From a virus: DNA of 42,174 nt. Where the stretch lies: the IMG/VR virus record IMGVR_UViG_3300029532_000009, positions 1-42,174 of that record. One strand, 5' to 3'. A program made the translations under genes and the position numbers. Below are positions 4,983 through 35,033 of this stretch, one piece after another. Under the pieces are notes generated by a model, which saw nothing but the letters and a program-made list of their open reading frames with translations, was not told where the DNA came from and searched no databases. Every line of letters starts with the position of its first letter. Position 1 is the first letter of the stretch.

Positions 4983-6116
4983 ATGAAATGCGTGAGACCA
5001 TGCTGCCGGAAGGAAATCCCGGATGGTGCTTCTTTTTGTCCGTGGTGCGGGAAGAAACAGCCGGAAGCCGCCCCGAAGCAAAGAAAAAAGCGCCGCCGTC
5101 CCAAGGGCAGCGGCAGCGTGTATAAACTGAGCGGGGAGCGGGCAAGACCGTATGTGGCGCTTACAGCCAAAAGGGATGTTCTGGGAACGTTTGAAACGGC
5201 AGGCGAAGCAGTACAAGCGCTGGACGCTTACAACGCCCAGAACACCCCCGCTGCGCTTCTGAAATGCACCTTTGCAGATGCCTATACCCAATGGAAATCG
5301 CAGCCCAAATTTGACAAGCTCAGCACGGACATGCAAAAGGGGTACGAGCTGGCCTATGCAAAGGCTGCGCCGCTATACGACCGACAATTGCGGGACTTGA
5401 AAGCGGCAGATTATCAACAAGTGATTGACCAGATGGTTGAAAAGGGACTTTCCCGCAGCTCCTGCGAAAAGCAGCGCACGCTTTTCAGCCAGATCTGCGA
5501 GTGGGCAATGGCGCAGGACATCATAAACAAAAATTACGCCATGCTGCTGCAGCTCCCGGCGGCTACAGGAAAAGCGGAGCGCACTCTGACTGCAGCCGAG
5601 ATAGAGCAGATCAGCATCTACCAGAATGACCCAAAATTCGGGCAGACGGCTCAGATCGCCATGGTTTTGCTGTACACCGGTATGCGCATTGATGAACTGC
5701 TCTCTATGCGCTGTGAGGACGTGCATCTGAAGGAGCACTATATGCAGGGCGGCGAAAAGACCGAAGCAGGCAAAAACCGCATTATCCCGATTCTTGAACC
5801 GATTTACAAGACGGTAGCTTTTTGGATGCTGAACAGCGGGTGCGAATGGCTGATACCATCCAAGACCGGCACAAAGCTGGACAAACGCAATGTGGCTACA
5901 AAATTCCGTGCCCTGATGCAGGAATGCCACATAGAGGGTGTGCATCCGCATACGCTGCGCCACACGGCCAGCAGCAAGATGGTGGAGTGCGGCCTGGAAA
6001 AGACCGCCGTGCAGGCCATCTTGGGCCACAAAAATTTCTCCACCACAGCAAACAAGTACGTCTCCCACAATGACCCGAATTATCTGTTGCAGGAAATGCG
6101 AAAGATGAAGTATTGA
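4983..6116 (+). CDS. int: Tyrosine integrase with N-terminal zinc-ribbon
   Basis: 377 aa with AAGGAG upstream. Catalytic signature YTGMRIDELLSM (R), HTLRHTASS (H-x-x-R) and LGHKNFSTTANKYV (H...Y). N-terminal motif CCRKEIPDGASFCPWCG. Confidence 0.9.
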   Translation: MKCVRPCCRKEIPDGASFCPWCGKKQPEAAPKQRKKRRRPKGSGSVYKLSGERARPYVALTAKRDVLGTFETAGEAVQALDAYNAQNTPAALLKCTFADAYTQWKSQPKFDKLSTDMQKGYELAYAKAAPLYDRQLRDLKAADYQQVIDQMVEKGLSRSSCEKQRTLFSQICEWAMAQDIINKNYAMLLQLPAATGKAERTLTAAEIEQISIYQNDPKFGQTAQIAMVLLYTGMRIDELLSMRCEDVHLKEHYMQGGEKTEAGKNRIIPILEPIYKTVAFWMLNSGCEWLIPSKTGTKLDKRNVATKFRALMQECHIEGVHPHTLRHTASSKMVECGLEKTAVQAILGHKNFSTTANKYVSHNDPNYLLQEMRKMKY

Positions 6117-6185: not shown

Positions 6186-6228
6186 AACGCACGGACGATT
6201 CGTTTTAATCGTTCGTGCGTTTATTTTT
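6186..6228 (+). terminator. Rho-independent terminator of the integrase operon
   Basis: 15-bp stem aacgcacggacgatt/aatcgttcgtgcgtt (one G:U pair), loop cgtttt, then tatttttgg. Confidence 0.85.
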
Positions 6229-6275
6229 GGAGCTGGTGACAGGAGTTGAACCTGCAACCCACTGATTACAAATCA
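6228..6275 (-). other. attP core: 3' portion of a tRNA-Thr(UGU) gene
   Basis: The minus strand reads gatTTTGTAAtcagtgggttgcaggttcaactcctgtcaccagctCCA. This gives anticodon loop TTTGTAA, a T arm gcagg/ttcaact/cctgt, the acceptor 3' strand and CCA. No 5' half (D arm, acceptor 5' strand) is present. Confidence 0.8.
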
Positions 6276-12434: not shown

Positions 12435-14372
12435 TTATGTGTTGGTCATTGATGCCACAGCATCCTCAAGGTCAGTGATGCGCTTGATGGGGTCTGCTCT
12501 GCCGGTCACCGTCACACTGTCTGCGTCGGTCAAGACTGTGTTCACGCCGGGGAGGGCGGGGATAGGCTGCGCTCCTGTGGCAGTGAAGGGGACAGGCGTA
12601 GCTAGCTTGTAGGCGATTTGCACCGGGGTTTTGGCGGCGTACTGGGCGGCGAGGTAGGATTTTAAGTCGTCAACGGTATCAAATCCGCATGTGTTTAAGC
12701 CAACGTTAATGTTTCTGTTTTCAGCGTATAGGGCGTTAGTGTTTGCTGTTTTTGTGCCGCTCCAATGGCTTGCCACTACCGTGCTAGTAGGCACGGATAC
12801 TGGCAGGGCTAAGTTGATTTCAAACAAATTATACTTATCTCGCTTGTATATCCTCTCCGTTCCCGTCAGCGTAAGTAGCGCCCGCGTCTCCTGCCCCTCT
12901 CCCGTCACTGCATCCACCGTACCGCCGTAGATGGTGCGGGGCAGAGTGATGGTGGCAGTTTGGCCGGTGTAGGGGGCGTAGGTGGTAGGGGCAGTGGTGC
13001 CAAGCGTGATTTGCAGATTGGTGCAAGTTCTCTCTCTGTTTTCGTCCAGTCCTGCGTACAATCGCACCGTCGCTATGTTTCCAGCTTTAAGAACCGTGCT
13101 GCTGCCACCGTTTGCACGAAGCGTTCCAATTTCCGCGCCAGTGCCATCATAAAAACGAACCTCTCTCAAGGTTCCGGTTGAGCACTCTCCAGAAAAATAT
13201 AGCTGCACGTTTCTGGGCAGAAGATTCACAGCGTCCATGTCGATTTTTGTTGTGATATTTGAATTGTACGTCTGCAAGGTGATTTTATCGAGGCTCCACA
13301 GGGTTTCCCCGCATCTTGTCACTGTCACACTGTCCCTGCCCTTAATCGGCCGGACATTGTCCGGGCTAGGTTCGGCGCTCCCTTCCTGCGTGGGCTCCCA
13401 GCTGGCAGTCACGCCCAGCGGATAATTTGCCACGGGGTAGCACTGCAACGGGTTGCCGGTCTCTTCCAGTGGCGGGCAGAGCATGTCCACGATGTGCTTG
13501 CTGCTCCAGGCGTCGGGCCCCACGGCGGTATCATCAATTTGTATGCCATCTTTGCCGTCTGCACCTGCCGGGCCGGGGTCGCCTTTAGGCCCCTGTGGCC
13601 CAGTGTCACCTTTTTCGCCCTGCGGCCCCTGCGCACCCTGCGGGCCGCGCTCGCCCTGAATGCCACGCGGCCCCTGTTCACCACGAGGGCCAGTCTCGCC
13701 CTGCGGGCCGGTGGCTCCGGTAGCACCAGTGGGGCCTTGAGGGCCTTGCTCACCCTGCGGGCCGATGGGGCCAGTGTCGCCCTTGTCGCCTTTCTCGCCT
13801 TTGAAGTTACCAGCGGCAATGCCGTCTTTCAGTTCCTGTAAGCTGTCAGCGGCCTTTTTCTGTGCGTCACCGGCAGCTTTCTCGCTGGCAGCGGCTTTTT
13901 GTGCGGCTGCTCCTGCCTGCTGCGCTGCAGTCTGCGCGTCGGTCTTGGCCTGCTCTGCGGCGGTGGCATCTTTGTGCACGGCATCCACCAGCTGCTGCCA
14001 CGCGGGCGAGTCCGGCTCCGGCTCTGTGCCGTCCTCTGTGCCGCTGTTGGCGCTGACGCGATATCGCAGGTCGGCGCTGGTCACGGTCTTTGTGCCGTCG
14101 CTGCCCTCAAAGGTAATGCAGCCGTTGCCGGGCTGTGCGGTAACGCTGGCGGGCACATCCACAGAGCCGTCCACCACCAGCGAGGATGCCGGGTCTTTGC
14201 CGCCCGGGACGTGCCAAAAGGCCCGGATGGTCAGGTCCTGCCACTCGCCGGATGCGGTGACAGCAAGTCGGTACACACCCCGGTTCTTGGTGTAGCCAAA
14301 GCGCACCAGCTGCTCATAGCCCGGCACTTTGACGACGCCATTGGATGCGAGAGATACGCTTAGCTCGATCAT
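12435..14372 (-). CDS. Tail fibre / receptor-binding protein with coiled coil and collagen-like triple-helix region
   Basis: 645 aa with AAGGAG RBS. Beta-rich N-domain, Ala/Gln/Lys-rich coiled coil, 28 consecutive G-X-Y triplets (aa 192-275), and a ~370-aa C-terminal domain. Confidence 0.75.
13548..13799 (-). repeat. Collagen-like G-X-Y repeat (28 triplets) inside the fibre gene
   Basis: [85 protein letters not shown]. Confidence 0.9.
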
Positions 14373-24476: not shown

Positions 24477-25376
24477 TTAGACCGATTCACCCGGGGTAAT
24501 GGTCTCGACAGCGATACCGTCCAGATACTCAGCAAACAGGGTCACACCCATAATGGCGTAGCTCTCGGAGGTTGCGGTGCTGTAGTTTGCCTGAGTGTGG
24601 AAGCCGATGAGGTTGCTTGCCTCGCCTGCGGTCCGGTAGACCAGACCTGCGCGGGCAAACTCGCTATCCGCAGGATCCACATAGTACATGACGATGTTGT
24701 CTACCGGGGTGGCAATAACCTTTCCCTTCGCAATCTCACTGTCGGACAGCAGGAAGATGGTGTTGTAGCCCATGAAGTCCTTGATGTACTGGAAGCCGAA
24801 CTGGTTCTGCACGGTGATATTGGCATTGCCCAGATAGTCGTACACGTCCATCACGTTGACAAAGCCAACAACGCCGGTCACGGTGCGATGCATGGTCTTG
24901 AACTTGTTCTCGACCGCGCCCTTGGCATGTGCCAGCGCCATCTGGAAGGTCTTGGGAGTGCCCTTCAGGGTGCCGGTGTTCAGGAACTTGTAGAACTTAT
25001 CCGTTACCAGAGCGGTCAGGTCGTACAGGAACTCATCATCGGTCTTTTGCACGGCGAAATCGTAGCCGTAATTCTGGATCGCCTCAAGGGTGACAGACTT
25101 GCCGTACTTGTCGATGGTGATCTTGCCGTACTCCTTCTCCTTGACGGTGTACTTGCTGAGCGGAATCTCTTCGCCCTCGCCCACGGTGCCGCTCTGCAGG
25201 GTGCCCTGTGCATACTTGCTCTTGAGCACGGTGCCAGGCTGCATCCGGATAGGGCGCATGATGCCCAGAATGGTGCGCAGATGGTCCCAGTTGCGCTGGA
25301 AACGGGTCACAAAGTCGATTTCACGCGCGGCTACGGTGATATCGGTGGTCATGGTGATATTTTCTTTTGCTGCCAT
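24477..25376 (-). CDS. Major capsid protein (HK97 fold, no protease-processed delta domain; paired with a scaffold)
   Basis: 299 aa following the scaffold gene. High expression signals (AAAGGA RBS). Composition is typical of SPP1-like capsid proteins. Confidence 0.8.
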   Translation of the reverse strand: MAAKENITMTTDITVAAREIDFVTRFQRNWDHLRTILGIMRPIRMQPGTVLKSKYAQGTLQSGTVGEGEEIPLSKYTVKEKEYGKITIDKYGKSVTLEAIQNYGYDFAVQKTDDEFLYDLTALVTDKFYKFLNTGTLKGTPKTFQMALAHAKGAVENKFKTMHRTVTGVVGFVNVMDVYDYLGNANITVQNQFGFQYIKDFMGYNTIFLLSDSEIAKGKVIATPVDNIVMYYVDPADSEFARAGLVYRTAGEASNLIGFHTQANYSTATSESYAIMGVTLFAEYLDGIAVETITPGESV

Positions 25377-25379
25377 GTA

Positions 25380-25967
25380 TTAGTCCTTTCCGCCGCCTGT
25401 GAACAGGTCGGCATTTGCTGCAATGGCCGCCTGGCGTTCGCCAGCGTCCTTGATTGCAAAAATTTGCTCTTTGGTCATTTTGGAGCCGGTGTTGGTAGGC
25501 GGGGTGTCCACCTTTGCGCCGGTGGTCGTGGTCGTAGCCACAAAGTCGCCCCAGTCAGCTTTCAGGCTGTCGGTGTGCTTCTTGGCATCCTTGACCTCGC
25601 CCTTTTCGTCCAGCTCCAGCTTGTCAATGTCCTCGCCGGACAGCCGCACGACGCGGTCTGCGTACTTGTCCAGCACCCCGGCGGACTTCAGCAGCTCCCG
25701 GAACTTGGCTTCCTTGGCCGCGTGGGTGTCCTTCTTGGTCTGCTGGGCCTTGTAGTCGGTCAGCGCATTTTCAGCGGCCTGCTTGCCGCCGTTGGCCTCG
25801 TCCCGCTCTTTCTCGGCTTTGGCGAGGGCTGCGTTCTTCTCATCGAGCTGGTTCTGCAAAGTGTCCGTTTCCTCATGCAGCACGTCCAGAATTTTCTTGA
25901 GCTTGCCGCTGGTGTCGGTCGTTTCATCTTCCAGAATCGCCCGGAGAGTCTTGCGTTCGAGTGCCAT
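25380..25967 (-). CDS. Scaffolding protein
   Basis: 195 aa, highly charged coiled coil (LQNQLDEKNAALAKAEKERDEANG...), immediately upstream of the capsid gene. Confidence 0.75.
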   Translation of the reverse strand: MALERKTLRAILEDETTDTSGKLKKILDVLHEETDTLQNQLDEKNAALAKAEKERDEANGGKQAAENALTDYKAQQTKKDTHAAKEAKFRELLKSAGVLDKYADRVVRLSGEDIDKLELDEKGEVKDAKKHTDSLKADWGDFVATTTTTGAKVDTPPTNTGSKMTKEQIFAIKDAGERQAAIAANADLFTGGGKD

Positions 25968-26065
25968 GTGTTAGTCCTTTCTGCCCTTGCTCGGGCTGGC
26001 GTGCTCGCCATCGGATTTGTGAATTGCCTACGTTTTGTAGGCGGTTGCCGGACGTGCTGCCGGTG

Positions 26066-26142
26066 TGGTGCCGCTTGTGGGGCTTGAACCCACGGCCCCC
26101 GGATTAAAAGTCCGGTGCTCTCCCAGATTGAGCTAAAACGGC
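26066..26142 (-). tRNA. tRNA-Lys (anticodon UUU), CCA encoded
   Basis: Hand-folded cloverleaf: GCCGTTT TA GCTC AATCTGGGA GAGC A CCGGA CTTTTAA TCCGG GGGCC GTGGG TTCAAGC CCCAC AAGCGGC A CCA. Confidence 0.85.
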
Positions 26143-26188
26143 ATAAAAAAGCGGCTGACGCATTGCGCCAACCGCTGAGTATTCAGTT

Positions 26189-26419
26189 TTAGAGCGAAAA
26201 TTCACAGTCTGTGTCTGTAGGATAGTCCTGCGCTTCGGCCGGAACATAGACCAAAACAGAAATTTTGGCTTTACCCTCGCCGTATGCGTTATCACACATC
26301 TCCTGAAGCGCTTTACGTGCCTGAGCACCAGCCGAAAACAAATATTTGATTTTTTCGGCGTTTTCTTGTGCTTTTATAGCGGCTTGAAGCTGTTCGTTCC
26401 AAGTTTCGCTTTTGGCCAT
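26189..26419 (-). CDS. Hypothetical protein (76 aa)
   Basis: MAKSETWNEQLQAAIKAQENAEKIKYLFSAGAQARKALQEMCDNAYGEGK... Tightly follows the gp10-like gene. Confidence 0.5.
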   Translation of the reverse strand: MAKSETWNEQLQAAIKAQENAEKIKYLFSAGAQARKALQEMCDNAYGEGKAKISVLVYVPAEAQDYPTDTDCEFSL

Positions 26420-26890: not shown

Positions 26891-26920
26891 AACAAAACCC
26901 CGCCCCGGTGTGGGGCAGGG
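26891..26920 (-). terminator. Rho-independent terminator after the KilAC antirepressor
   Basis: Stem ccccgcccc/ggggcaggg (one mismatch), followed on the minus strand by ttttgtt. Confidence 0.65.
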
Positions 26921-26932
26921 TCGGTGATTCAG

Positions 26933-27682
26933 TTACAGGTACAGCAGCCGGAACGTCTCACGGCCTTTGGGGGTGATGAGCGTCTGCACGCCGCTCCACT
27001 GGGTCTTGTCGTTCTTGGCTTCCTTGACCTCAAACAGGCCGTTGTTCTTGTCCTCACGGGGCAGCAACTTGCCTTTCTGGTCACGGTAAAGGAATTTCTT
27101 GTCCAGAAGCCACGCCACAAAGGCTTTTGGCTTGATGCCCAGCTCTTTGGCTGTCTCCCGGAAATTGGTCAACAGGTTGCGGTCAACCAGTTCGTCGAAG
27201 TATTCTGCCTTGGGCTGCATGATCTGCTTCTCCACGTTAAGCTGGCTATTCTGTGCGGTCAGCTCACAAATGCGGGCTTCCCGGTCTGCAAGGGTCTTGT
27301 TCGCCACAAGCAGCGCCTTTGCCATCAGCTCCTCCGGGGTGAGCTGCTCCTGCCCGGCGATGTACCCGCCGTTCTTGCGGATGGACGGCAGCACCTCGGA
27401 CGTGACCCACTTGCGGAACGGTTTGGCTTCCGGCTTGTCGCTGCGGAGAATGACGTTGTACAGGCCGCTCTCATTGATGATGTAGGTGGACTGCTTGCGA
27501 CCCATGCTGTCGATGACCTCGGTCTGACCGACCTCATCCTCATCCATGCGCTTGGCGGTGTCCGTGATGTGGGAAATGCCCAGCACCGTGCACACGTCCT
27601 TGAGAACAAACCACGGTTCGCCGTCCATCTCTACGGTGCGGACTTCGTTGGACTGGTAGTTGAAAATCTGAATATTAGACAT
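26933..27682 (-). CDS. Second antirepressor: Bro-N domain plus KilAC domain
   Basis: ATG 27682 (MSNIQIFNYQSNEVRTVEMDGEPWFVLKDVCTVLGI...INESGLYNVILRSDKPEAKPFRKWVTSEVLPSIRK). C-terminus PKAEYFDELVDRNLLTNFRETAKELGIKPKAFVAWLLDKKFLY is KilAC-like. Confidence 0.85.
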   Translation of the reverse strand: MSNIQIFNYQSNEVRTVEMDGEPWFVLKDVCTVLGISHITDTAKRMDEDEVGQTEVIDSMGRKQSTYIINESGLYNVILRSDKPEAKPFRKWVTSEVLPSIRKNGGYIAGQEQLTPEELMAKALLVANKTLADREARICELTAQNSQLNVEKQIMQPKAEYFDELVDRNLLTNFRETAKELGIKPKAFVAWLLDKKFLYRDQKGKLLPREDKNNGLFEVKEAKNDKTQWSGVQTLITPKGRETFRLLYL

Positions 27683-27965
27683 GAGAAATCTCCTTATTGC
27701 TTTCATCAATGATTGCGTTTACTTCTTTCTCCAGACCAGAGATGCTGCCGAACAGCGTGCACAGGATGGAATCATACATAGGCGCTTCATCCCACAGGCG
27801 GGAAACATCACGCTCGTTGCGTGGGCGGATCAGATCATCCGTCTTGTGGGTCTCCTCAAACCAGTTTGCAAAGATGTTCAACAGGTTGTGCATCGTCTGG
27901 AGCTCACCGGAAACCATGTCCAACTCAAACTCTGCGCTTGCGATTTTGCTTGTTTGCATCATCAT
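27675..27965 (-). CDS. Hypothetical protein (96 aa)
   Basis: GAGG RBS. MMMQTSKIASAEFELDMVSGELQTMHNLLNIFANWFEETHKTDDLIRPRNERD... Its stop overlaps the antirepressor start. Confidence 0.55.
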   Translation of the reverse strand: MMMQTSKIASAEFELDMVSGELQTMHNLLNIFANWFEETHKTDDLIRPRNERDVSRLWDEAPMYDSILCTLFGSISGLEKEVNAIIDESNKEISHV

Positions 27966-27980
27966 GACCTCACATTTTAC

Positions 27981-28009
27981 TTGACTTTTTCTTATAAATA
28001 AAATAAAAT
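27981..28009 (+). promoter_or_regulatory. Orphan plus-strand promoter TTGACT-N17-TAAAAT
   Basis: TTGACT 27981-27986 and TAAAAT 28004-28009 with an exact 17-nt AT-rich spacer. Bracketed by an 11-bp inverted repeat (27969-27979 / 28004-28014). Confidence 0.55.
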
Positions 28010-28051
28010 GTGAGTAAGAGGAGCTTTTTGAATACGGTTTCTCTGGCTTAC

Positions 28052-28090
28052 GAGTGGTTAGCTATGGCGAGTAGCTAACCACTCTTTTTT
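28052..28090 (+). terminator. Strong plus-strand rho-independent terminator about 40 nt after the orphan promoter
   Basis: Perfect 13-bp stem gagtggttagcta/tagctaaccactc, loop tggcgag, then tttttt. Confidence 0.8.
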
Positions 28091-28153
28091 GTACTGTTCG
28101 AACTTCTTGCGCTGTTCTTCACGGTTCAGCTTCTTGAAATCCTTGAACTTCAT
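28058..28153 (-). CDS. Tiny basic ORF (31 aa), uncertain
   Basis: ATG 28153 lies 6 nt after AAAGGAGG. MKFKDFKKLNREEQRKKFEQYKKEWLATRHS. Its 3' end runs through the terminator hairpin. Confidence 0.35.
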   Translation of the reverse strand: MKFKDFKKLNREEQRKKFEQYKKEWLATRHS

Positions 28154-28205
28154 GGGCGTCCTCCTTTCCGCCCCTCTTGCTCACAAGAATATTATAGCAC
28201 TAATA

Positions 28206-28295
28206 TTCGTGCAAGTATATTGACGTTTTGCACTAATTTTAGTCTTTTCTTTGGTTATTTTTGCACTTGTTTTCGTGCAAATTATCCTGTATACT
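28206..28295 (+). promoter_or_regulatory. Promoter/operator region of the twin-HTH operon
   Basis: TTGTTT 28267-28272, N17, TATACT 28290-28295. Duplicated motifs ttcgtgcaa (28206-28214, 28272-28280) and ttttgcact (28226-28234, 28259-28267). Confidence 0.5.
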
Positions 28296-28319
28296 AAAGA
28301 TGTAATAGGAGGTGAGCTT

Positions 28320-28535
28320 ATGCCGTTGAAGTTCAAAATAAATGTCCTTGATGCGTTGAAACAAGCCGGTTACAACACGTCGAGAATCCGTCAGGAAAAT
28401 CTGTTGAGCCAGTCAACCTTGCAAAAATTGCGTGATGGTGGGCAACTTTCGTGGTCGAACCTTGAAACAATTTGCAGGTTGCTTGAATGCCAGCCGGGGG
28501 ACATACTTGAATATATCCCGTTCGAAACAGAATGA
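28320..28535 (+). CDS. Small XRE-type HTH regulator (71 aa)
   Basis: ATG 28320 follows AGGAGGTG. MPLKFKINVLDALKQAGYNTSRIRQENLLSQSTLQKLRDGGQLSWSNLETICRLLECQPGDILEYIP. Confidence 0.7.
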   Translation: MPLKFKINVLDALKQAGYNTSRIRQENLLSQSTLQKLRDGGQLSWSNLETICRLLECQPGDILEYIPFETE

Positions 28536-28545
28536 GGTGTTAGAA

Positions 28546-28764
28546 ATGTCGATAAGCTATCACTTAAAGGCCTTGCTCGCAGACGCAAACATGACGCAAA
28601 AGGAACTTGCCGAAGTAACCGGGATTCGTCCCCCAACTATCTCGGCTCTTTGCCTTGGAACGGTCAAACAGCTCCCCATCGGGGTTCTTGAAAAAATTTG
28701 CACCGTTCTGAATTGCCAGCCCGGCGACATACTGGAATATGTGCCGGATAAATCCGAACAGTGA
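28546..28764 (+). CDS. Small XRE-type HTH regulator, paralogue of the previous gene (72 aa)
   Basis: ATG 28546 follows GAGGTG. MSISYHLKALLADANMTQKELAEVTGIRPPTISALCLGTVKQLPIGVLEKICTVLNCQPGDILEYVP. Confidence 0.7.
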   Translation: MSISYHLKALLADANMTQKELAEVTGIRPPTISALCLGTVKQLPIGVLEKICTVLNCQPGDILEYVPDKSEQ

Positions 28765-28771
28765 CCCTACA

Positions 28772-28800
28772 CCCTGCCGGGAGGCAGGGCTTTATTTTTA
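28772..28800 (+). terminator. Terminator between convergent HTH operon and MuF gene
   Basis: Stem ccctgcc/ggcaggg, loop ggga, then ctttattttta. Confidence 0.7.
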
Positions 28801-28807
28801 TACTCAA

Positions 28808-29842
28808 TCATTTTACCTTCTCCTTTTTCTTGCGCTCCCGCTCTTTCGCCCACCACATTTGTTCGGCTTCCGTGCCGCCCTTGGATTTATACCACTCGGT
28901 GTAATCCATGACGGGGGTGGTCTCTTTGGTCACATTGTCTCTCTGCATGGCGTTCTGCCTGGGATACTTGCCCAGAGCAGAGGACAGCACACAGCGGCAG
29001 TGGTAAACCATCTCCGGCGCTGCGTTGGGGTCTCCGGGGCGCTGAATCTCGTAGCCCATGACTTTGAACGGCTCGTCAAGCTCTGCCGTCTGCTGGTCAA
29101 GCAGGCGGTGCATTTCACGGGTGCGGTAGTCGTGGGTGGAGTTCCACCGCTTTTTGACCTCGATGCCCAAAGCCTGGGCGTTGCGCATTTGCTGCAATGC
29201 CCCGGCGTTCTGAGCGCCTGTGAGCGCCGTGATGGCGTTGTTCATGGCCCAGTGGATCTCTGTGTCTGCCATGCCGTTTACGGCCTGCACGGCGATGTCG
29301 TGGACGCTCTTGCCCTGCACGATGCCTTGCATGACGTAGCGGTTGAACACCCGGGCGTCATAGGTGCGGTTGCTCTCGCTCTTGATGCGCTTGTTTGGCA
29401 CCAGCTTGGGGTTTTCCTTCAGCAGCAGCTTGACTGCTTCGGTATTGTACAGGGTCAGCCCGAACGTCACGCCTGCGGCCTGTTCCAGCTCGTAGAAGGT
29501 CCAGTTTGCGCCAAAGGAAAAGATGTTGTATTGCTCGTCCCGGGCCAGCTTGTAGGCCGTCTCTTGGGCTTTGGTGCAGGTCTGGGTGATGCCGTCCAGC
29601 TTTGCCCGCATCAAATCGGACTGAAAGACCTGATTTTGCAGCCAGATGCGGTAATCCTCTTCGGTGATCTCGCCTGCATCCAGCTGCGCCCGCTTGCGCT
29701 CGTCCAACGCTCGGTACTTTCCAAGAAACTCGGTGAGCTGCTCGGTCATTTCCCGGCGGGCTGTGCCGTATACCCGCAAAATGCGGCGGCGCAGGCGGTT
29801 CAGCTGCCGGGTGGTGATGCGGTCAAGATCTGTTTTCTTCAT
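28808..29842 (-). CDS. Minor head protein, Mu F / SPP1 gp7 family
   Basis: 344 aa after the portal region. RWNSTHDYRTREMHRLLDQQTAELDEPF...RPGDPNAAPEMVYHCRCV is the Mu-F signature. Confidence 0.8.
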   Translation of the reverse strand: MKKTDLDRITTRQLNRLRRRILRVYGTARREMTEQLTEFLGKYRALDERKRAQLDAGEITEEDYRIWLQNQVFQSDLMRAKLDGITQTCTKAQETAYKLARDEQYNIFSFGANWTFYELEQAAGVTFGLTLYNTEAVKLLLKENPKLVPNKRIKSESNRTYDARVFNRYVMQGIVQGKSVHDIAVQAVNGMADTEIHWAMNNAITALTGAQNAGALQQMRNAQALGIEVKKRWNSTHDYRTREMHRLLDQQTAELDEPFKVMGYEIQRPGDPNAAPEMVYHCRCVLSSALGKYPRQNAMQRDNVTKETTPVMDYTEWYKSKGGTEAEQMWWAKERERKKKEKVK

Positions 29843-30626
29843 GGCTGTTCAGATACTCCACAATAGCACGCTCCCGGGCGGACAGTTCCCATTTTGTGGC
29901 CGCAGCCCTTTCAGCCGCAGCCCTTTCAGCCGCAGCCCTTTCAGCCGCAGCACAATCAGACAGCAGCAGACCTGAACCAAAAATCGTTTTCCCCGTGGAG
30001 CGTTGTGAATCCAGCGCATAAATTGGAGCGCAGTCCTTTTTATGAATTTTGAAATCCACACCGTAATGGCTGTATCGTTGTAGCATTGCAGCCGTTACAA
30101 TATTATCCGGGTATGTATACTTTGGCAGCTGTACTGTTTTGGTGCGTCTAAGGCGTTCTACCTCATCGTTTACCAGCTTCGTAAGGCGAGGTTCTGTTTG
30201 CGCTATGATGTCCCCGCCGTAGCTGGTCACAAAACTTGTTCTGACGATTGCACCGTTTTCGTACTCGATACTACAGTCGCAAATGATATGGTTCATCCGC
30301 ATATTATTTGCTCTTCCAGAAAACGCTGTCAAAGATGGAGCGAATAGGAAGAACGGAATGCCACGATCGAGATAGAACCCGCAGATTCGGGACAGGATTG
30401 AAAACGGTGGGTTGTCCAGAACAACGGCACCCTCCGGGTAGTCGAAATTCTCATAATCGCCGCCGGGATAAAATGGACGCACAATTTTGGCCGGGTCGAT
30501 GCCGTACTCCTTGCAGGCCCAGTCCCGGATAACAGCGTATACGCTAGGCGGTGTATAGCAGTCGTCAGTAGTCTTTTTCGGCTTGAACTTCTCCACGAAC
30601 TCTTCATAGGTTTCATTCGCTGCCAT
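29823..30626 (-). CDS. Putative N6-adenine DNA methyltransferase (DNPPF motif) with C-terminal AAAER repeats
   Basis: ATG 30626 overlaps the portal stop region. DDCYTPPSVYAVIRDW...VVLDNPPFSILSRI (motif IV (D/N)PP(F/Y)). C-terminus has AAAERAAAERAAAERAAA. Confidence 0.55.
   Translation of the reverse strand: MAANETYEEFVEKFKPKKTTDDCYTPPSVYAVIRDWACKEYGIDPAKIVRPFYPGGDYENFDYPEGAVVLDNPPFSILSRICGFYLDRGIPFFLFAPSLTAFSGRANNMRMNHIICDCSIEYENGAIVRTSFVTSYGGDIIAQTEPRLTKLVNDEVERLRRTKTVQLPKYTYPDNIVTAAMLQRYSHYGVDFKIHKKDCAPIYALDSQRSTGKTIFGSGLLLSDCAAAERAAAERAAAERAAATKWELSARERAIVEYLNSHEENRS
29899..29952. repeat. 15-nt tandem repeat gccgcagccctttca x3 plus a partial copy
   Basis: Perfect copies at 29899-29913, 29914-29928 and 29929-29943, with a partial copy to 29952. 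Encodes (AAAER)n on the minus strand. Confidence 0.9.
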
Positions 30627-32001
30627 TGTTTTCCTCCTCCTCGTCCACGGTCTCCCGCTCTGCACTCTCAGCCATCAGCGCCGCCCGAGCCTTTTCCTTT
30701 TGCTCCGGGGTCAGGTTTGGCAGTAGGTCAATGGCCATGTCCTGCCCAATGATCGCCGCCTCGGAGATTACTGTGCTGACCTGCTCTGCGGTGTTTACGA
30801 TCCGGCTCCGGTTGAATGTCGGCGTTGCGCTGCCAAAGCCAGCCAGCGCACAGATCTGACGAACAAAAGGTTTGATCTGAGCCTCGAAGTCGTCTGCGTT
30901 CTGGTTCATGGGTTCATAGGCTGCATCCAGATGATCGTTGGTGCTGTTTGCGCTGACACAATGCACGTCCAGACCGCCGAAATCCTCATAGACCCGGGTG
31001 TGCAGCAGCTCTAGCAGGGTCTGCCGGGCAGTCACCGGCACTTCGCTGGTGTATGGGGTGATCTTGCCGCCCTCGCTGGTGTCCGCACCGGCGATGTGGT
31101 AGAGGTTCAGCTTCGCAAGGAACTCCTGCAGTTCATCATCGGTCATTCCGTTGAAGTTTTCGCACAGCCAGTAAATCTGTGCGCAATCCTGCAAGTCGCT
31201 GCAGAAGCCGGACGTCACCAGATCGGTGTTGTCGATGTAGGCTTTCAGGCCTACGAGGGTGCTTTGATGCAGGTCGGATCCCCACAGCGGTACCACAGGC
31301 AGAGTGCTGTAGTTTTCCCCCTCCACGCTTTCCAGCCCGCCGCCGGGGGTGGAGACGGTCACGCTCTTGTATGCCTGCTTCGGGGCCGTCTCCTGCATAG
31401 TGCTGCCGATCCTGCTTTCCGTGTACTCGGTGTAACCGTCCTCTTCGTACAGGACATAGTGCATATCCGTGTCAGGATTCAGCCGCCAGAACCGCACCCC
31501 GGCCCGCATGGAGCCGGAGGTCTCATCGTACAGGGGCGCAAACTCGGTCAGCTTGAACACCACCAGATGGTCGTTGTTCCAGAAGCCAAAGCTCTCACCG
31601 TGGATTAGGGCAAAGTATCCGGCTTTCTGGATCTGCTCGTCAAATTCAGCCCCCAGTTTTTCTTTGTCCACGTCCTTATCCGCAAAGGTAACACCGTTGC
31701 CCAGAGAGTAGGTGGCACGCTGCTTGTTGAGCCGCCGGAACAGATTGCTCTTGACCATATCGGGCCGGGGAACATCCTGCCGTGTGTTCTTGGAAAGGCG
31801 TTTCAGCATAAAGGCGTAGGCTTGCGAAAAGCGCTCCGCGCCCGGGTTTTTCTGGGCGTCGTACAGGTCGGCGTCCAGCGCCATCCTGTAAGGGCCGGAA
31901 GCACAGTGCTGCTGCACGAACCGCCGGACAAAATCAGCCTGTTCCCCGGCGGCTTGCGCCTGCTGAAAGGTCTGGAATGTGTATACAGTGCTCAAAATCA
32001 A
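30613..32001 (-). CDS. Portal protein (SPP1 gp6-like)
   Basis: About 460 aa immediately after TerL. The start is a TTG (32001 or, with better spacing to GAGGGA, 31995). Confidence 0.85.
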   Translation of the reverse strand: MILSTVYTFQTFQQAQAAGEQADFVRRFVQQHCASGPYRMALDADLYDAQKNPGAERFSQAYAFMLKRLSKNTRQDVPRPDMVKSNLFRRLNKQRATYSLGNGVTFADKDVDKEKLGAEFDEQIQKAGYFALIHGESFGFWNNDHLVVFKLTEFAPLYDETSGSMRAGVRFWRLNPDTDMHYVLYEEDGYTEYTESRIGSTMQETAPKQAYKSVTVSTPGGGLESVEGENYSTLPVVPLWGSDLHQSTLVGLKAYIDNTDLVTSGFCSDLQDCAQIYWLCENFNGMTDDELQEFLAKLNLYHIAGADTSEGGKITPYTSEVPVTARQTLLELLHTRVYEDFGGLDVHCVSANSTNDHLDAAYEPMNQNADDFEAQIKPFVRQICALAGFGSATPTFNRSRIVNTAEQVSTVISEAAIIGQDMAIDLLPNLTPEQKEKARAALMAESAERETVDEEEENNGSE

Positions 32002-33245
32002 TCCCTCAGTTTCACAAGGCGCTTCGTGCGCACAAAATATCGGATGGCGTCCATGCAGTGGTCGTTGACCTTCAGCACGGCGTCATCTTTATCTGGGTCC
32101 CAAGCATATACGCCGAACTCTTCCAGCGTGTGCTTGCAGTCTTTGCAGATCTTCAGCCGCCCGGTCTGCAGCATGGTCTGTACGTCCAGAATACCGCTCA
32201 GAACGTCGTTGTTTGCCGGGTTCTGGGTAAAGCCATTCTTGCGCAGTTCCGTAATCAGGGGCAGGGCAGAGGGGTCCACGATGACCCGCTCCGGCTTCAG
32301 GCCGTCCAGCCACGCTTTGAGATCTGTGACGTACTCGCCCACGGTCTTTTGCCGCTTCTGCTCTCGCCCGCTGTAGTAATACTCCCTGGTGACGATCCAG
32401 CAGTCTGCATCGGCCTGTTTTTGGAGCAGCAGGAACACCGTTGCGTTCTGGGTGCCGAAGTCGCACGCCACATAGGCGCTCTTCGGGGACAGCTCGGGCA
32501 GCACGTCAATGACGTGTTTTTTGGGGTCGAACATGTCATATACAAGTCCCTCTGCCACCGTCCACAGGCCCAGAATGTAGCGCTGGTAGAAAACGCCGCT
32601 GTACTGGCTGCGGTATCTGGCCTTGATTTCCTCGGAGAGCGACAAGTTGTCGTCCATCGTAAAGTGGAGGTACATCATCTTGCGGGAACGGCATTTCCGC
32701 ACCCACTCAAGATAAAACCAATGCTGTGGGCTGCCCGGGTTGCAGTTGAACCAGAATTTTGACCCGGTGACGGAGCAGCGGGCAGTGGCCTGATTGACAA
32801 AGCTCTGCGGCATCAGCGCCACCTCGTCAAAGAATGCCCCAGCCAGCGTGATGCCCTGGATCAGGTCTTGGCTGCTCTCGTCTTTGCCGCCGAAAAAGTA
32901 AAACTCGTTGGATTTGCCGCCTTTGCTGACGGTCATGAAATTTTCTGCCCGATGCTCTTTGACATTGTAGCCACGGGCTGCAAGCTGCTGCTTGAGCGTG
33001 CCAAGCACGTTTCGCCGGAAGCTGGCAATGGTCTTGCCGCACATGGCAAACTGCTGGCCGCTGTAGCAGGTCATGGCCCACTGGACAAAAGAAAAGCTCA
33101 TGGCAAAGGTCTTGCCCGAGCGGATAGCGCCATCGGCAATGATGCCGTTGTAGCCGCTGTATGCGCTCTGCGGTGTCCACCAGCTAAGAACCTGTTTCTG
33201 CCGCTGGCTGAGGGCTTTCCAGCGAAAGCCGTTACTTTTCCGCAT
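31998..33245 (-). CDS. terL: Terminase large subunit
   Basis: ATG 33245 (MRKSNGFRWKALSQRQKQVLSWW...). Walker A GAIRSGKT. About 415 aa. Confidence 0.9.
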   Translation of the reverse strand: MRKSNGFRWKALSQRQKQVLSWWTPQSAYSGYNGIIADGAIRSGKTFAMSFSFVQWAMTCYSGQQFAMCGKTIASFRRNVLGTLKQQLAARGYNVKEHRAENFMTVSKGGKSNEFYFFGGKDESSQDLIQGITLAGAFFDEVALMPQSFVNQATARCSVTGSKFWFNCNPGSPQHWFYLEWVRKCRSRKMMYLHFTMDDNLSLSEEIKARYRSQYSGVFYQRYILGLWTVAEGLVYDMFDPKKHVIDVLPELSPKSAYVACDFGTQNATVFLLLQKQADADCWIVTREYYYSGREQKRQKTVGEYVTDLKAWLDGLKPERVIVDPSALPLITELRKNGFTQNPANNDVLSGILDVQTMLQTGRLKICKDCKHTLEEFGVYAWDPDKDDAVLKVNDHCMDAIRYFVRTKRLVKLRD

Positions 33246-33726
33246 TGTCGTCCTCTTCCTTTGGCAGAAGATCCACATCGTCAGGCGGGCTGAGGTCTGC
33301 GGCGGCATTCAGGGCCTCCACAAGGCCATCGTCCGGGACTTCTATGCTATTCTGGTCTCCCAGCATGGCAAACTTGTCCACGATGGTGCCAAACGCCGTT
33401 GACAGCTGCGGCAGTGTTGCTTCCGCGATCTTGTCCGGGTCGGCCATCGCTTTCAGGTACAGCCCGAGAAGCTCTTGTGCTTCTCCTTGCTTGCTCTCCA
33501 TGTAAGAAAGCATGTCCTTCGAGTTTTCCCGTTTTTTTTGTGCACACAAGCGCGCACTCTCCGGGTCTTCCTTTACGACTTTCTTAACGGTCGCGTCCGA
33601 AACGTCATTCAGCTTTGCGGCTGCACGGTAGCTTTGGAGCTGCACATAGTCCGCAACGATCTTCTTTTTTTGCTTATCTGTCAGCCGCCGTGCGCCCACC
33701 GCCACCACCTCTCTAAACTCATACAA
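33232..33726 (-). CDS. terS: Terminase small subunit
   Basis: 164 aa upstream of and overlapping TerL. N-terminal HTH (LTDKQKKKIVADYVQLQSYRAAAKLNDVSDATVKKVV) and an acidic tail. A GTG start about 24 nt downstream is possible. Confidence 0.7.
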   Translation of the reverse strand: MYEFREVVAVGARRLTDKQKKKIVADYVQLQSYRAAAKLNDVSDATVKKVVKEDPESARLCAQKKRENSKDMLSYMESKQGEAQELLGLYLKAMADPDKIAEATLPQLSTAFGTIVDKFAMLGDQNSIEVPDDGLVEALNAAADLSPPDDVDLLPKEEDDNAEK

Positions 33727-33769
33727 AAGAAAAACCGCCCGGAAACCCGAACGGTCAAAATATCGAATG

Positions 33770-33843
33770 TGCCGCTTGCAGGAATCGAACCCGCTACCCC
33801 CGGATTAAAAGTCCGGTGCTCTGCCAGACTGAGCTAAAGCGGC
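33770..33843 (-). tRNA. tRNA-Lys (anticodon UUU), no encoded CCA
   Basis: GCCGCTT TA GCTC AGTCTGGCA GAGC A CCGGA CTTTTAA TCCGG GGGTA GCGGG TTCGATT CCTGC AAGCGGC A. The anticodon arm is identical to the copy at 26066..26142. Confidence 0.85.
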
Positions 33844-33919
33844 ATAAGAAAAACCAGCTTTGCTGCATGGAGCTCATCATGCAAAAAGCTGGTTTTTAAT
33901 CGTATTGTATCAGCAGCGG

Positions 33920-34147
33920 TTAATCCGCACGGATAGCAGGCCGTGCTCCTTGGATACAGCCACGGCCTCCGATCTCTGCCCGAGGCTCGCGTTTTGTGTG
34001 GTCTGCACGGAAACCGAAACACCGCGCATAGCGCACAAAGTGGCTTTCTTTGTTGCTGATCGGTAAGGCCGAGAGGATAAGGCCAGCGCCGAGACGCGTC
34101 AAAAATTTTGCCATGTCGCAAATCAGTTCTTTCAAGCGCTCAAACAT
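33920..34147 (-). CDS. Small ORF inside the tRNA block (uncertain)
   Basis: ATG 34147 lies 6 nt after GGAGAGGAGG. MFERLKELICDMAKFLTRLGAGLILSALPISNKE... The C-terminal half is Arg/Gly-rich and may not be coding. Hairpins lie on both sides (34169-34187; 33850-33898). Confidence 0.3.
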   Translation of the reverse strand: MFERLKELICDMAKFLTRLGAGLILSALPISNKESHFVRYARCFGFRADHTKREPRAEIGGRGCIQGARPAIRAD

Positions 34148-34199: not shown

Positions 34200-34335
34200 A
34201 GCCGCCAGCTGGATTTGAACCAGCACCCACGGAACGGATGTGCGCAGTGGCTGGCTGTGCAGTGATGTTCCCGTGGTGTCACCAACGTTGTCCCGCCTTA
34301 AATGGGCGGCGCTCTTCCAGTTGAGCTATGACGGC
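34200..34335 (-). ncRNA. 136-nt non-canonical tRNA-like gene (Lys-like anticodon loop with A33, about 68-nt insertion in the variable region)
   Basis: GCCGTCA TA GCTC AACTGGAA GAGC G CCGCC CATTTAA GGCGG [68 nt] GCTGG TTCAAAT CCAGC TGGCGGC T. The insertion contains a ~10-bp helix, CCACGGGAAC...GTTCCGTGG. Confidence 0.55.
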
Positions 34336-34459: not shown

Positions 34460-34537
34460 TGGCATTCCCGGCAGGGACCGAGCCTGCAGCCTCTGGTTTT
34501 GGAGACCAGCGCTCTACCAATTTTGAGCTACGGGAAT
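34460..34537 (-). tRNA. tRNA-Trp (anticodon CCA), CCA encoded
   Basis: ATTCCCG TA GCTC AAAATTGGTA GAGC G CTGGT CTCCAAA ACCAG AGGCT GCAGG CTCGGTC CCTGC CGGGAAT G CCA. The A1:U72 pair and G73 are as in bacterial tRNA-Trp. The T loop is atypical (C54, G58). Confidence 0.8.
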
Positions 34538-34544
34538 ATAAAAA

Positions 34545-34613
34545 GCCGCCCTTGGAATCGAACCAGCCGTGTCTACGCACACGCGCCGCGCTCCAAATTG
34601 CGCTCAGGCGGCC
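34545..34613 (-). ncRNA. Degenerate tRNA-like element (about 68 nt)
   Basis: Good acceptor stem (GCCGCCT/GGGCGGC), canonical D arm (GCGC AATTTGGA GCGC) and T loop TTCGATT. The T stem has a bulge, and the anticodon region folds only as CGTGT/ACACG with a 6-nt loop. Confidence 0.4.
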
Positions 34614-34765: not shown

Positions 34766-34836
34766 TGCGATACGGCGGAATCGAACCGCCTCCTGTCTCT
34801 CATGAGCGGCAGCCTGCCTTTGTGTCAGTGTATCGC
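34766..34836 (-). ncRNA. Degenerate tRNA-like element (71 nt) containing CAT
   Basis: Perfect acceptor stem GCGATAC/GTATCGC and T arm GGCGG TTCGATT CCGCC. The D stem is only CTG/CAG. I could not fold an anticodon stem around ...GCTCATGAG... Confidence 0.4.
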
Positions 34837-35033
34837 ATAGAAGCAGCCCGCGAAACGGTGAAGGGGAGCGGGGCAAAGCATGAAACCCGCCGGGAAGGCC
34901 GTTCCGGAGACTGCGTGCATCGGTTTGCCTTTTCGGCTTTGCCGATGGTACCATGATAAGCCTTGAGCCGATTAGAAGTAAATCCCAAGGCATGTAAAAA
35001 TAAACCGCAGTTTTGTTGTGTAAAATGTACAAA

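Follow-up and report, generated by a model that had tools for sequence, protein, structure and literature searches.

Two tRNA-Lys(UUU) genes of a predicted Faecalibacterium phage and a family of phage tRNAs that changes identity in a fixed slot

Why phages carry transfer RNA (tRNA) genes is a question more than 50 years old, to which the main answers have been codon supply and counter-defence. We address it here through two tRNA-Lys(UUU) genes in a viral DNA of 42,174 nucleotides (IMG/VR record IMGVR_UViG_3300029532_000009, positions 1 to 42,174; this whole stretch is hereafter the window), one of which precedes the head scaffolding gene and the other the terminase genes. Phage tRNAs reportedly match codons that are common in the phage and rare in its host, as Bailly-Bechet et al. 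described in 2007. Such codon compensation is the classical view of phage tRNAs (PMC10264068). The tRNAs of the window and its relatives resemble codon-compensating tRNAs in that their anticodons UUU, UGU and CCA read the codons ranked 1st, 3rd and 9th of 61 by excess in the phage; they differ in being single tRNAs in fixed late-operon slots rather than members of a tRNA island, and in that near-identical phages swap tRNA identity without a change in codon use. As regards counter-defence, the prime targets of the PARIS effector AriB in Escherichia coli are the Lys(UUU) and Thr(UGU) tRNAs, which are cut at U36AAUC/A41, tRNA-Met(CAU) is not cleaved, and escape by phage T5 depends on Lys, Thr and Asn variants of its own, with a tRNA-Lys that departs from its E. 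coli counterpart at positions 39 and 41 (PMC12409363). The tRNAs considered here share with this system the principal isoacceptors, Lys(UUU) and Thr(UGU), and a possible further parallel is that at anticodon-stem position 39 or 41 the phage copies are unlike the only host tRNA recovered (Thr). They depart from it in having no Asn allele and a generic Lys anticodon arm, and in belonging to a temperate Firmicute phage with 2-4 tRNAs, T5 being lytic and equipped with a much larger tRNA set.

Changes of tRNA identity have their own precedents, and Saks et al. are said to have shown in 1998 that an E. coli tRNA can be recruited from Arg to Thr via a point mutation. Alloacceptor anticodon shifts have been described in eukaryotic genomes (PMC3923123) and tRNA remolding in metazoan mitochondria (PMC4783518); our literature search recovered no paper on anticodon shifts in phages. 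In the phages studied here syntenic tRNA genes likewise change identity by anticodon substitution on a conserved body, so far that one Lys allele resembles a Thr allele more than it does the other Lys gene; unlike in the described cases, the change segregates as a standing polymorphism within a single phage population (81 genomes, at least 21 switches), intragenic crossovers contribute to it and the discriminator changes in parallel. Actinobacteriophages with tRNA-dependent lysogeny (PMC10865867) resemble the window's phage in being temperate, in having a tyrosine integrase that targets a host tRNA gene and in carrying tRNAs of their own. They differ in that here the host tRNA-Thr is rebuilt and the tRNAs of the window are of another isotype. 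Finally, non-coding RNAs linked to tRNAs are exemplified by the tRNA-microRNA (miRNA) chimeras of murine gammaherpesvirus 68 and by the stable RNAs in the tRNA cluster of phage T4. Only the element at 34200-34335 of the window is comparable, having a tRNA-shaped body and an extra hairpin domain within a tRNA array; its extra domain lies inside the variable region and not 3' of the tRNA, and its anticodon loop has a conserved A33.

The two tRNA-Lys genes occupy positions that we term slot S and slot T, and these genes and the surroundings of the first are as follows (nt, nucleotides; bp, base pairs).

26066..26142, minus strand: tRNA-Lys(UUU), slot S; called by ARAGORN; 70.3 bits with the Rfam tRNA model; CCA end encoded; A73
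33770..33843, minus strand: tRNA-Lys(UUU), slot T; called by ARAGORN (as 33769-33843); 70.4 bits with the Rfam tRNA model; no encoded CCA; A73
26143..26176, minus strand: conserved 12-bp hairpin with U tract, of intrinsic-terminator form, ending 2 nt before the slot-S tRNA
25968..26065, minus strand: spacer from the slot-S tRNA to the scaffold ATG; no terminator; ribosome-binding site GAAAGGA; conserved, 73-98 nt across the family
25380..25967, minus strand: head scaffolding protein gene (Pfam Phage_scaffold), ATG at 25967
24477-25376, minus strand: major head protein gene (PHROG major head protein), after the scaffold gene

Both tRNA-Lys genes score well above the gathering score of the Rfam tRNA model (29 bits) and have a cloverleaf as minimum-free-energy structure, with stems of 7, 4, 5 and 5 bp, a 7-nt anticodon loop containing U33 and A37, and the UUC motif of the T loop. 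The anticodon loop, CUUUUAA in both, is fully canonical, and both possess the lysine identity elements U34, U35, U36 and A73. They are identical at 63 of 74 positions (85%), share the 26-nt plus-strand segment cccccggattaaaagtccggtgctct and differ in the D loop, the variable region, the T arm and acceptor position 5. An earlier sequence-only reading of the window had described two canonical tRNA-Lys(UUU) genes, the first with an encoded CCA end and the second without, sharing a 26-nt anticodon-arm segment and diverging in D loop, T arm and acceptor stem, and had placed the first gene 98 nt before the scaffold ATG in the head-morphogenesis region; all of this was confirmed. It had omitted a tRNA-Trp(CCA) gene and a fourth, tRNA-like gene on the same strand. 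The shared anticodon arm is not distinctive, because it is generic to cellular tRNA-Lys in many phyla: when a genome collection was scanned with the 23-nt D-stem and anticodon arm, 73 of the 75 tRNAs among the matches listed were chromosomal tRNA-Lys(UUU) of unrelated phyla of bacteria and archaea.

At least 225 IMG/VR contigs encode a related scaffold protein, and the best 80 of these (90-99% identical) were fetched and combined with the window to give 81 family genomes. All 81 have a tRNA between conserved flanks, at a distance of 73-98 nt upstream of the scaffold ATG, and it is Lys(UUU) in about 32, Thr(UGU) in about 38, Met(CAU) in 10 and 'Ala'(UGC) in one. The hairpin upstream of the slot is likewise kept in most of these genomes, with the tRNA beginning 2 nt after its U tract. 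A second sample, of about 190 loci with some redundancy, was fetched via this conserved hairpin and contained 94 Thr, 67 Lys, 28 Met, 2 'Ala' (from one contig) and 1 Trp; the only anticodon loops found in it were the canonical CUUUUAA, UUUGUAA, CUUGUAA and CUCAUAA. The location, previously judged an unusual place for a tRNA, is thus a conserved slot whose occupant switches between Lys, Thr and Met. The variable open reading frame (ORF) upstream of slot S is shuffled independently of the tRNA type across the family. We also observed that the lysines of the small variable ORFs just upstream of each tRNA-Lys gene (26189-26419 and 33920-34147, minus strand) are all encoded by AAA (7 AAA to 0 AAG and 4 to 0), the G+C content at third codon positions (GC3) of the two ORFs being 0.43 and 0.55, respectively.

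All non-Trp tRNAs of the family, whatever their anticodon, have in common the acceptor stem GCCG(C/U)UU / A(A/G)GCGGC followed by A73, and their D, anticodon and T arms come in a few types that are combined like modules. A few chimeras in which the crossover fell in a loop are left with a single mismatch (for example T stem GCGGG/CCCAC, anticodon stem CCCGG/CCGGA), which shows recombination inside the tRNA gene. The anticodon stem CCGGA/UCCGG is common to Lys alleles and to the alleles that we call Thr1. The Lys allele of one relative (L076) and the Thr allele of another (L069) differ at only three bases, namely 26 (A/G), 32 (C/U) and 35 (U/G), and as Thr alleles with A26 exist the difference between Lys and Thr comes down to positions 32 and 35. 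The slot-S tRNA-Lys of the window is itself 91% identical to the Thr1 allele of the sister phage L069, against 85% to the slot-T tRNA-Lys of its own genome, and the slot-T body occurs with a UGU anticodon in the relative L001. As is typical of alloacceptor shifts, the genes are syntenic, have near-identical bodies with different anticodons, and can be closer to another isotype than to their own. The changes leave the structure intact, with 1193 of 1218 stem positions paired in 58 distinct family sequences. Wherever the anticodon is UUU, position 32 is C, and in the shared anticodon arm UGU goes with U32; the discriminator is A73 in the Lys, Thr and Met alleles and G73 in the sole Trp allele with the family body. 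The latter occupies slot S of a more distant relative (L459, IMGVR_UViG_3300010275_000242), combines the family acceptor stem with a CCA anticodon and G73, and is by its sequence a family-body tRNA converted to tryptophan identity.

According to published identity rules Lys identity depends on the anticodon and A73, Met identity on the anticodon, Trp identity on CCA and G73, and Thr identity on the anticodon and acceptor base pairs with position 73 playing little role (PMC9976931). The observed switches fit these rules and so are those that the host synthetases should accept; the CAU alleles may be either Met or Ile2, as both fit the sequence. The putative tRNA-Ala(UGC) (L045/L460, IMGVR_UViG_3300030319_000005) was rejected as a real alanine tRNA, because it has C3-G70 in place of the G3:U70 pair that alanyl-tRNA synthetase (AlaRS) needs. 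It is a Thr allele with the single change U36C, 1 nt apart from the Thr allele of the relative L003, and is probably a mis-decoding or dead-end mutant.

Turnover of identity is rapid. Mapped onto a neighbour-joining tree built from the adjacent 1.48 kb, the tRNA identities require no fewer than 21 changes (label shuffles gave a mean of 33 and a minimum of 26), and genomes only 0.13% apart over this region carry different ones. The host tRNA-Thr is only 61-69% identical to any of the phage tRNAs, and hence these are not fresh copies of host genes. The shared acceptor stem and the modular, recombined arms indicate that the two tRNA-Lys genes are paralogues in a phage-specific, anticodon-shifting tRNA family. 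Of the origins proposed earlier for the pair, that of diverged paralogues survives, whereas 'anciently diverged' copies and 'independent acquisitions' do not agree with a single phage-specific family with a shared acceptor stem and recombining arms.

A fixed slot with a changing occupant might also be explained if the slot-S tRNA were mainly an RNase P / RNase Z cleavage signal between an accessory transcript and the scaffold-capsid messenger RNA (mRNA), such that the upstream accessory transcript would keep a 3' hairpin and the scaffold-capsid mRNA would be abundant; as any tRNA would do, its identity could drift. The occupancy of the slot in every family genome is in line with this, as are the start of the tRNA 2 nt after a conserved hairpin of terminator form, the lack of a terminator before the scaffold ATG, and a scan for sigma-70-like promoters that found none at slot S. 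A -35/-10 pair read by hand inside the slot-S hairpin was rejected, since the transcription start would fall within the tRNA. However, the anticodon repertoire is narrow, with every loop canonical in the approximately 190 loci, and the base at position 32 and the discriminator covary with the anticodon, which implies selection on decoding and charging and not on shape alone. Furthermore, Dulem virus 35 and Flavonifractor phage Chenonceau, more remote relatives in which the head genes follow the same order, are entirely devoid of tRNAs. We regard a role mainly in transcript processing as quite improbable.

Sequence comparisons point to Faecalibacterium duncaniae or a close relative as the host, because the FtsX encoded in the host flank of an integrated copy is identical to a protein named 'FtsX [Faecalibacterium duncaniae]' and the endolysin of the phage is 67% identical to that of Faecalibacterium phage FP_Lugh. 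The host sample consisted of 7 genes on one contig flanking the integrated prophage (2,964 codons, GC3 0.84), and the phage sample of 37 ORFs (8,553 codons, GC3 0.67). AAA rises from 11.8 per 1000 codons in the host to 30.6 in the phage (2.6-fold; 25% versus 43% of Lys codons) and shows the largest phage excess among the 61 codons (Fisher p = 8e-5 for AAA versus AAG). ACA, at 0.3 versus 12.2 per 1000 (1% versus 16% of Thr codons), is third by excess and second by ratio (23-fold), while TGG (7.1 versus 14.5) is ninth by excess, ATA (0.3 versus 2.9) fifth by ratio and GCA second by excess. The joint chance of AAA and ACA ranking so high is about 0.001, and the frequencies of the slot alleles in the larger sample (Thr 94, Lys 67, Met 28) follow the order of relative codon shortage. 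Thus the anticodons of the family match the codons of largest unmet demand, GCA excepted, and all alleles other than CAU read as Met (ATG) decode codons underused by the GC3-rich host. The comparison of AAA and AAG usage between phage and host had been named beforehand as a refuting test; the AAA bias is present and favours codon supply. AAA makes up 64% of Lys codons in the low-GC3 ORFs of the phage and 29%, the host level, in its host-like ORFs. The earlier suggestion that the genes support AAA codons in low-GC islands is accordingly sound in that AAA has the largest phage-over-host excess, and too narrow in that the excess is genome-wide, though strongest in the islands.

Based on these observations we propose, with about even confidence, that both genes encode functional elongator tRNAs of a temperate F. 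duncaniae phage, which add decoding of host-rare codons. From their position on the late-gene strand they would be co-transcribed with the packaging and head genes or transcribed immediately before them, and the slot-S copy, 98 nt in front of the scaffold-capsid genes, has no terminator of its own. Excision would fall to host RNase P and 3' processing enzymes and charging to host lysyl-tRNA synthetase (LysRS), as lysine identity rests on the UUU anticodon and A73; the tRNAs would then add decoding capacity for AAA, the codon in excess. In each of the two conserved slots identity would be switched via anticodon-loop mutation and recombination within the tRNA gene, the alleles being Lys(UUU), Thr(UGU), Met or Ile2(CAU) and rarely Trp(CCA), and Lys in both slots would be a rare assortment.

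Several observations weigh against this proposal. The most highly expressed genes beside the slot barely use AAA, the major head protein having 1 AAA versus 19 AAG and no ACA, and the scaffold protein 6 AAA versus 20 AAG. Across the 81 genomes tRNA identity does not track codon use, for AAA makes up a fraction of 0.381 in genomes with Lys and 0.397 in those without, and the use of ACA and ATA is also alike in carriers and non-carriers. Simple codon supply does not predict the rapid turnover, with its 21 or more switches and different identities in phages 0.13% apart. No functional tRNA of the family serves GCA, which is second in the ranking by excess; this gap may reflect restricted evolutionary access and not contradict the proposal, as AlaRS reads the acceptor stem and requires the G3:U70 pair, so that an anticodon change would not serve this codon. 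Moreover, the host codon sample comprises just 7 genes from one contig, and expression and charging of the phage tRNAs are predictions.

Slot T is the last position of a tRNA array upstream of the terminase genes, the features of which are given below in the order of transcription.

34953..35024, minus strand: two sigma-70-like promoter matches upstream of the array; consensus matches only
34766..34838, minus strand: degenerate tRNA-like relic in which T arm and acceptor stem are perfect and the D arm is missing; weak (tRNA-Sec model 21 bits, E 0.34)
34545..34613, minus strand: degenerate tRNA-like relic with an acceptor-like stem and T-loop motif; weak (by eye and motif match)
34460-34537, minus strand: tRNA-Trp(CCA); ARAGORN and Rfam; G73; CCA end; present in 66 loci
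34200-34335, minus strand: aberrant tRNA-like RNA of 136 nt; 46 bits with the Rfam tRNA model; missed by ARAGORN; cloverleaf fold
33920..34147, minus strand: variable ORF of 75 amino acids (aa), found in a minority of relatives; all 4 lysines AAA
33849..33897, minus strand: long hairpin with U run, directly upstream of the slot-T tRNA; read from the sequence
33733..33756, minus strand: terminator-like hairpin, just 3' of the slot-T tRNA and 5' of the putative small terminase ORF
33232-33726, minus strand: putative small terminase ORF

The array consists of a near-constant tRNA-Trp, then either the aberrant element or a canonical tRNA termed Thr3, and then optionally a Lys, Thr or Met tRNA; 66 complete arrays display 17 different tRNA complements. 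Lys in both slots is found in 2 of the 66, the window and its closest relative only, and Met+Met and Thr+Thr also occur. The duplication of exactly this isoacceptor, which the sequence-only reading had taken as suggestive of counter-defence, is therefore not special, being one rare assortment beside the others. The tRNA-Trp has at least 3 body types within the family. A promoter scan of the array region returned 4 sites against 1.0 expected. The two relics upstream of tRNA-Trp both carry GTTCGATTC T-loop motifs; for that at 34545..34613 the minimum-free-energy fold is not a cloverleaf and is no better than those of shuffled sequences (z -0.5), and no tRNA model matches it. Weak as it is, this evidence suggests that tRNA genes in the array have turned over in the past. 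The 75-aa ORF matched nothing in Pfam or PADLOC, and a match of the hairpin at 33849..33897 to a miRNA family was dismissed as spurious, the feature being a long hairpin with a U run.

The aberrant element has the anticodon loop CAUUUAA, with a UUU triplet and A33 instead of U33, invariant in every copy examined, and a variable region of 68 nt that forms two hairpins. Its acceptor stem and D arm are those of the Thr3 tRNA that replaces it elsewhere. It is present in more than 114 IMG/VR viral contigs, in which two types of insert, of 68 nt and of 82-87 nt, share their ends, and compensatory changes are seen in its T stem and anticodon stem. Judged by these sequence features, the RNA is both structured and conserved. 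When the extra arm was compared with the phage and with 10 kb of host DNA in search of an antisense target, nothing beyond chance matches of 10-12 nt came up.

The rapid switching of identity, which is independent of both flanks and of codon use, agrees with a possible role in counter-defence. The phage tRNAs would replace, or act as decoys for, host tRNAs cleaved by an immune nuclease (PARIS AriB-like, PrrC/RloC-like or VapC-like), and the switching would reflect strain-specific nuclease specificities. Lys and Thr, the two commonest slot alleles, are the same isoacceptors that AriB targets in E. coli, and for this reason the explanation retains some probability. At the site corresponding to positions 36-41 the host tRNA-Thr has UAAUCA, the phage Lys and Thr1 alleles have UAAUCC (A41C) and the Thr2 allele has UAACCA (U39C). 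In addition, the near-constant tRNA-Trp is not explicable by synonymous-codon bias. On the other hand, stem differences of this sort are expected for any unrelated tRNA body, and the pattern at positions 39 and 41 is a lead rather than a test. Phage tRNAs of the nuclease-resistant type are marked by anticodon-loop mutations (PMC10264068); the loops of Thr1 and Thr2 are identical to that of the host tRNA-Thr, and so do not display this mark, and the Lys anticodon arm is the generic arm of cellular tRNA-Lys. Met(CAU), which AriB does not cleave, is nevertheless a slot allele, the family has no Asn allele, and the specificity of AriB was measured in E. coli and not in a Firmicute. A PADLOC search of 10 accessory ORFs of the phage gave no match, and a literature search found no paper linking Faecalibacterium to a tRNA-targeting nuclease. 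Taking these points together, we consider counter-defence somewhat unlikely.

A more elaborate form of this idea would unite both slots with the aberrant element. The slots would be diversification hotspots, in which a private backbone is re-assigned among Lys, Thr, Met or Ile, and Trp through mutations in the anticodon loop and discriminator and crossovers inside the gene, under fluctuating selection driven by PARIS-like defences of Faecalibacterium, and the A33 RNA would be a non-cleavable decoy or inhibitor. We hold this composite scenario to be decidedly unlikely.

The remainder of the window conforms to a temperate siphovirus-type genome. Its late genes run on the minus strand in the order putative small terminase, large terminase, SPP1-type portal, a PHROG 21498 gene (function unassigned) and Mu-F-like minor head protein, followed on the same strand by a variable island with an Ant/Bro antirepressor, a gp10-like gene, a small variable ORF, the slot-S tRNA-Lys, scaffold and major head protein. 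Nucleotide searches against cultured phages matched fragments only. Two further features bear on integration.

4983-6116, plus strand: tyrosine integrase gene, adjoining the core of the phage attachment site (attP)
6228-6275, minus strand: attP core, corresponding to the 3' 48 nt of host tRNA-Thr(UGU), beside the integrase gene

A strong hairpin terminator stands after the tRNA-Thr fragment in attP. Integrated copies were recovered on two metagenomic contigs (L286 and L287), which encode an integrase protein identical to that of the window, and at the prophage-host junction of each a complete tRNA-Thr(UGU) (11246-11320 in L286) is followed by bacterial housekeeping genes. Other IMG/VR integrase loci on long contigs were rejected as sources of host flanks because they proved to be collinear phage sequence. 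From these junctions the integration site is the host tRNA-Thr(UGU) gene, and the host tRNA is rebuilt upon integration. This bears on the idea that the phage tRNA compensates for a host tRNA gene destroyed by integration, a mechanism known for a mycobacteriophage tRNA-Lys-TTT (PMC10865867). Integration into a tRNA-Thr(UGU) gene by phages, many of whose relatives carry tRNA-Thr(UGU), would agree with it. But attP contains 48 nt of the 3' half of the tRNA and an intact gene is restored at the junctions in both contigs, the window itself has no canonical tRNA-Thr(UGU), carrying Lys, Lys, Trp and the aberrant element, and the same integrase (94-99% identical) is associated with Lys, Thr and 'Ala' slot alleles. 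For the tRNA-Lys genes such compensation is largely refuted and we deem it very improbable. Roles in codon supply, counter-defence, transcript processing and lysogeny are not mutually exclusive.

Some other observations concern the same prophages. On one 72-kb contig (L293, 10852-20351) the other prophage end abuts a gene with a SocA_Panacea domain and a second, unrelated prophage, with no host genes gained, which suggests tandem prophages at or near one locus. Accessory islands within the head-morphogenesis module (~26900-28800 and 29823-30665) contain two opposite-strand helix-turn-helix (HTH) genes, small ORFs, the Ant/Bro antirepressor gene (26933-27709) and the PHROG 21498 gene, and are present in just ~5-20% of relatives versus more than 90% for the flanking head genes. 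Downstream of the lysis genes an ORF (12435-14372, minus strand) encodes a 645-aa protein with collagen triple-helix repeats, which is probably a tail fibre or surface-display protein.

Phage tRNAs as such are well known; what appears to be new, as far as our literature search shows, is the switching of tRNA identity at the population level in a fixed slot, together with a tRNA-like RNA with a giant arm. The latter, found in more than 100 gut phage contigs, stands apart as an uncharacterised non-coding RNA. Identity change has otherwise been inferred mainly by comparing eukaryotic or mitochondrial genomes with one another; here it takes the form of a standing polymorphism. An abundant phage family of the human gut thus offers a natural experiment, with one slot, interchangeable identities and one backbone in near-identical genomes, and exchanging the Lys, Thr and Met alleles within one lysogen could gauge what tRNA identity is worth to such a phage and how far this depends on the codon usage or the defences of its host.

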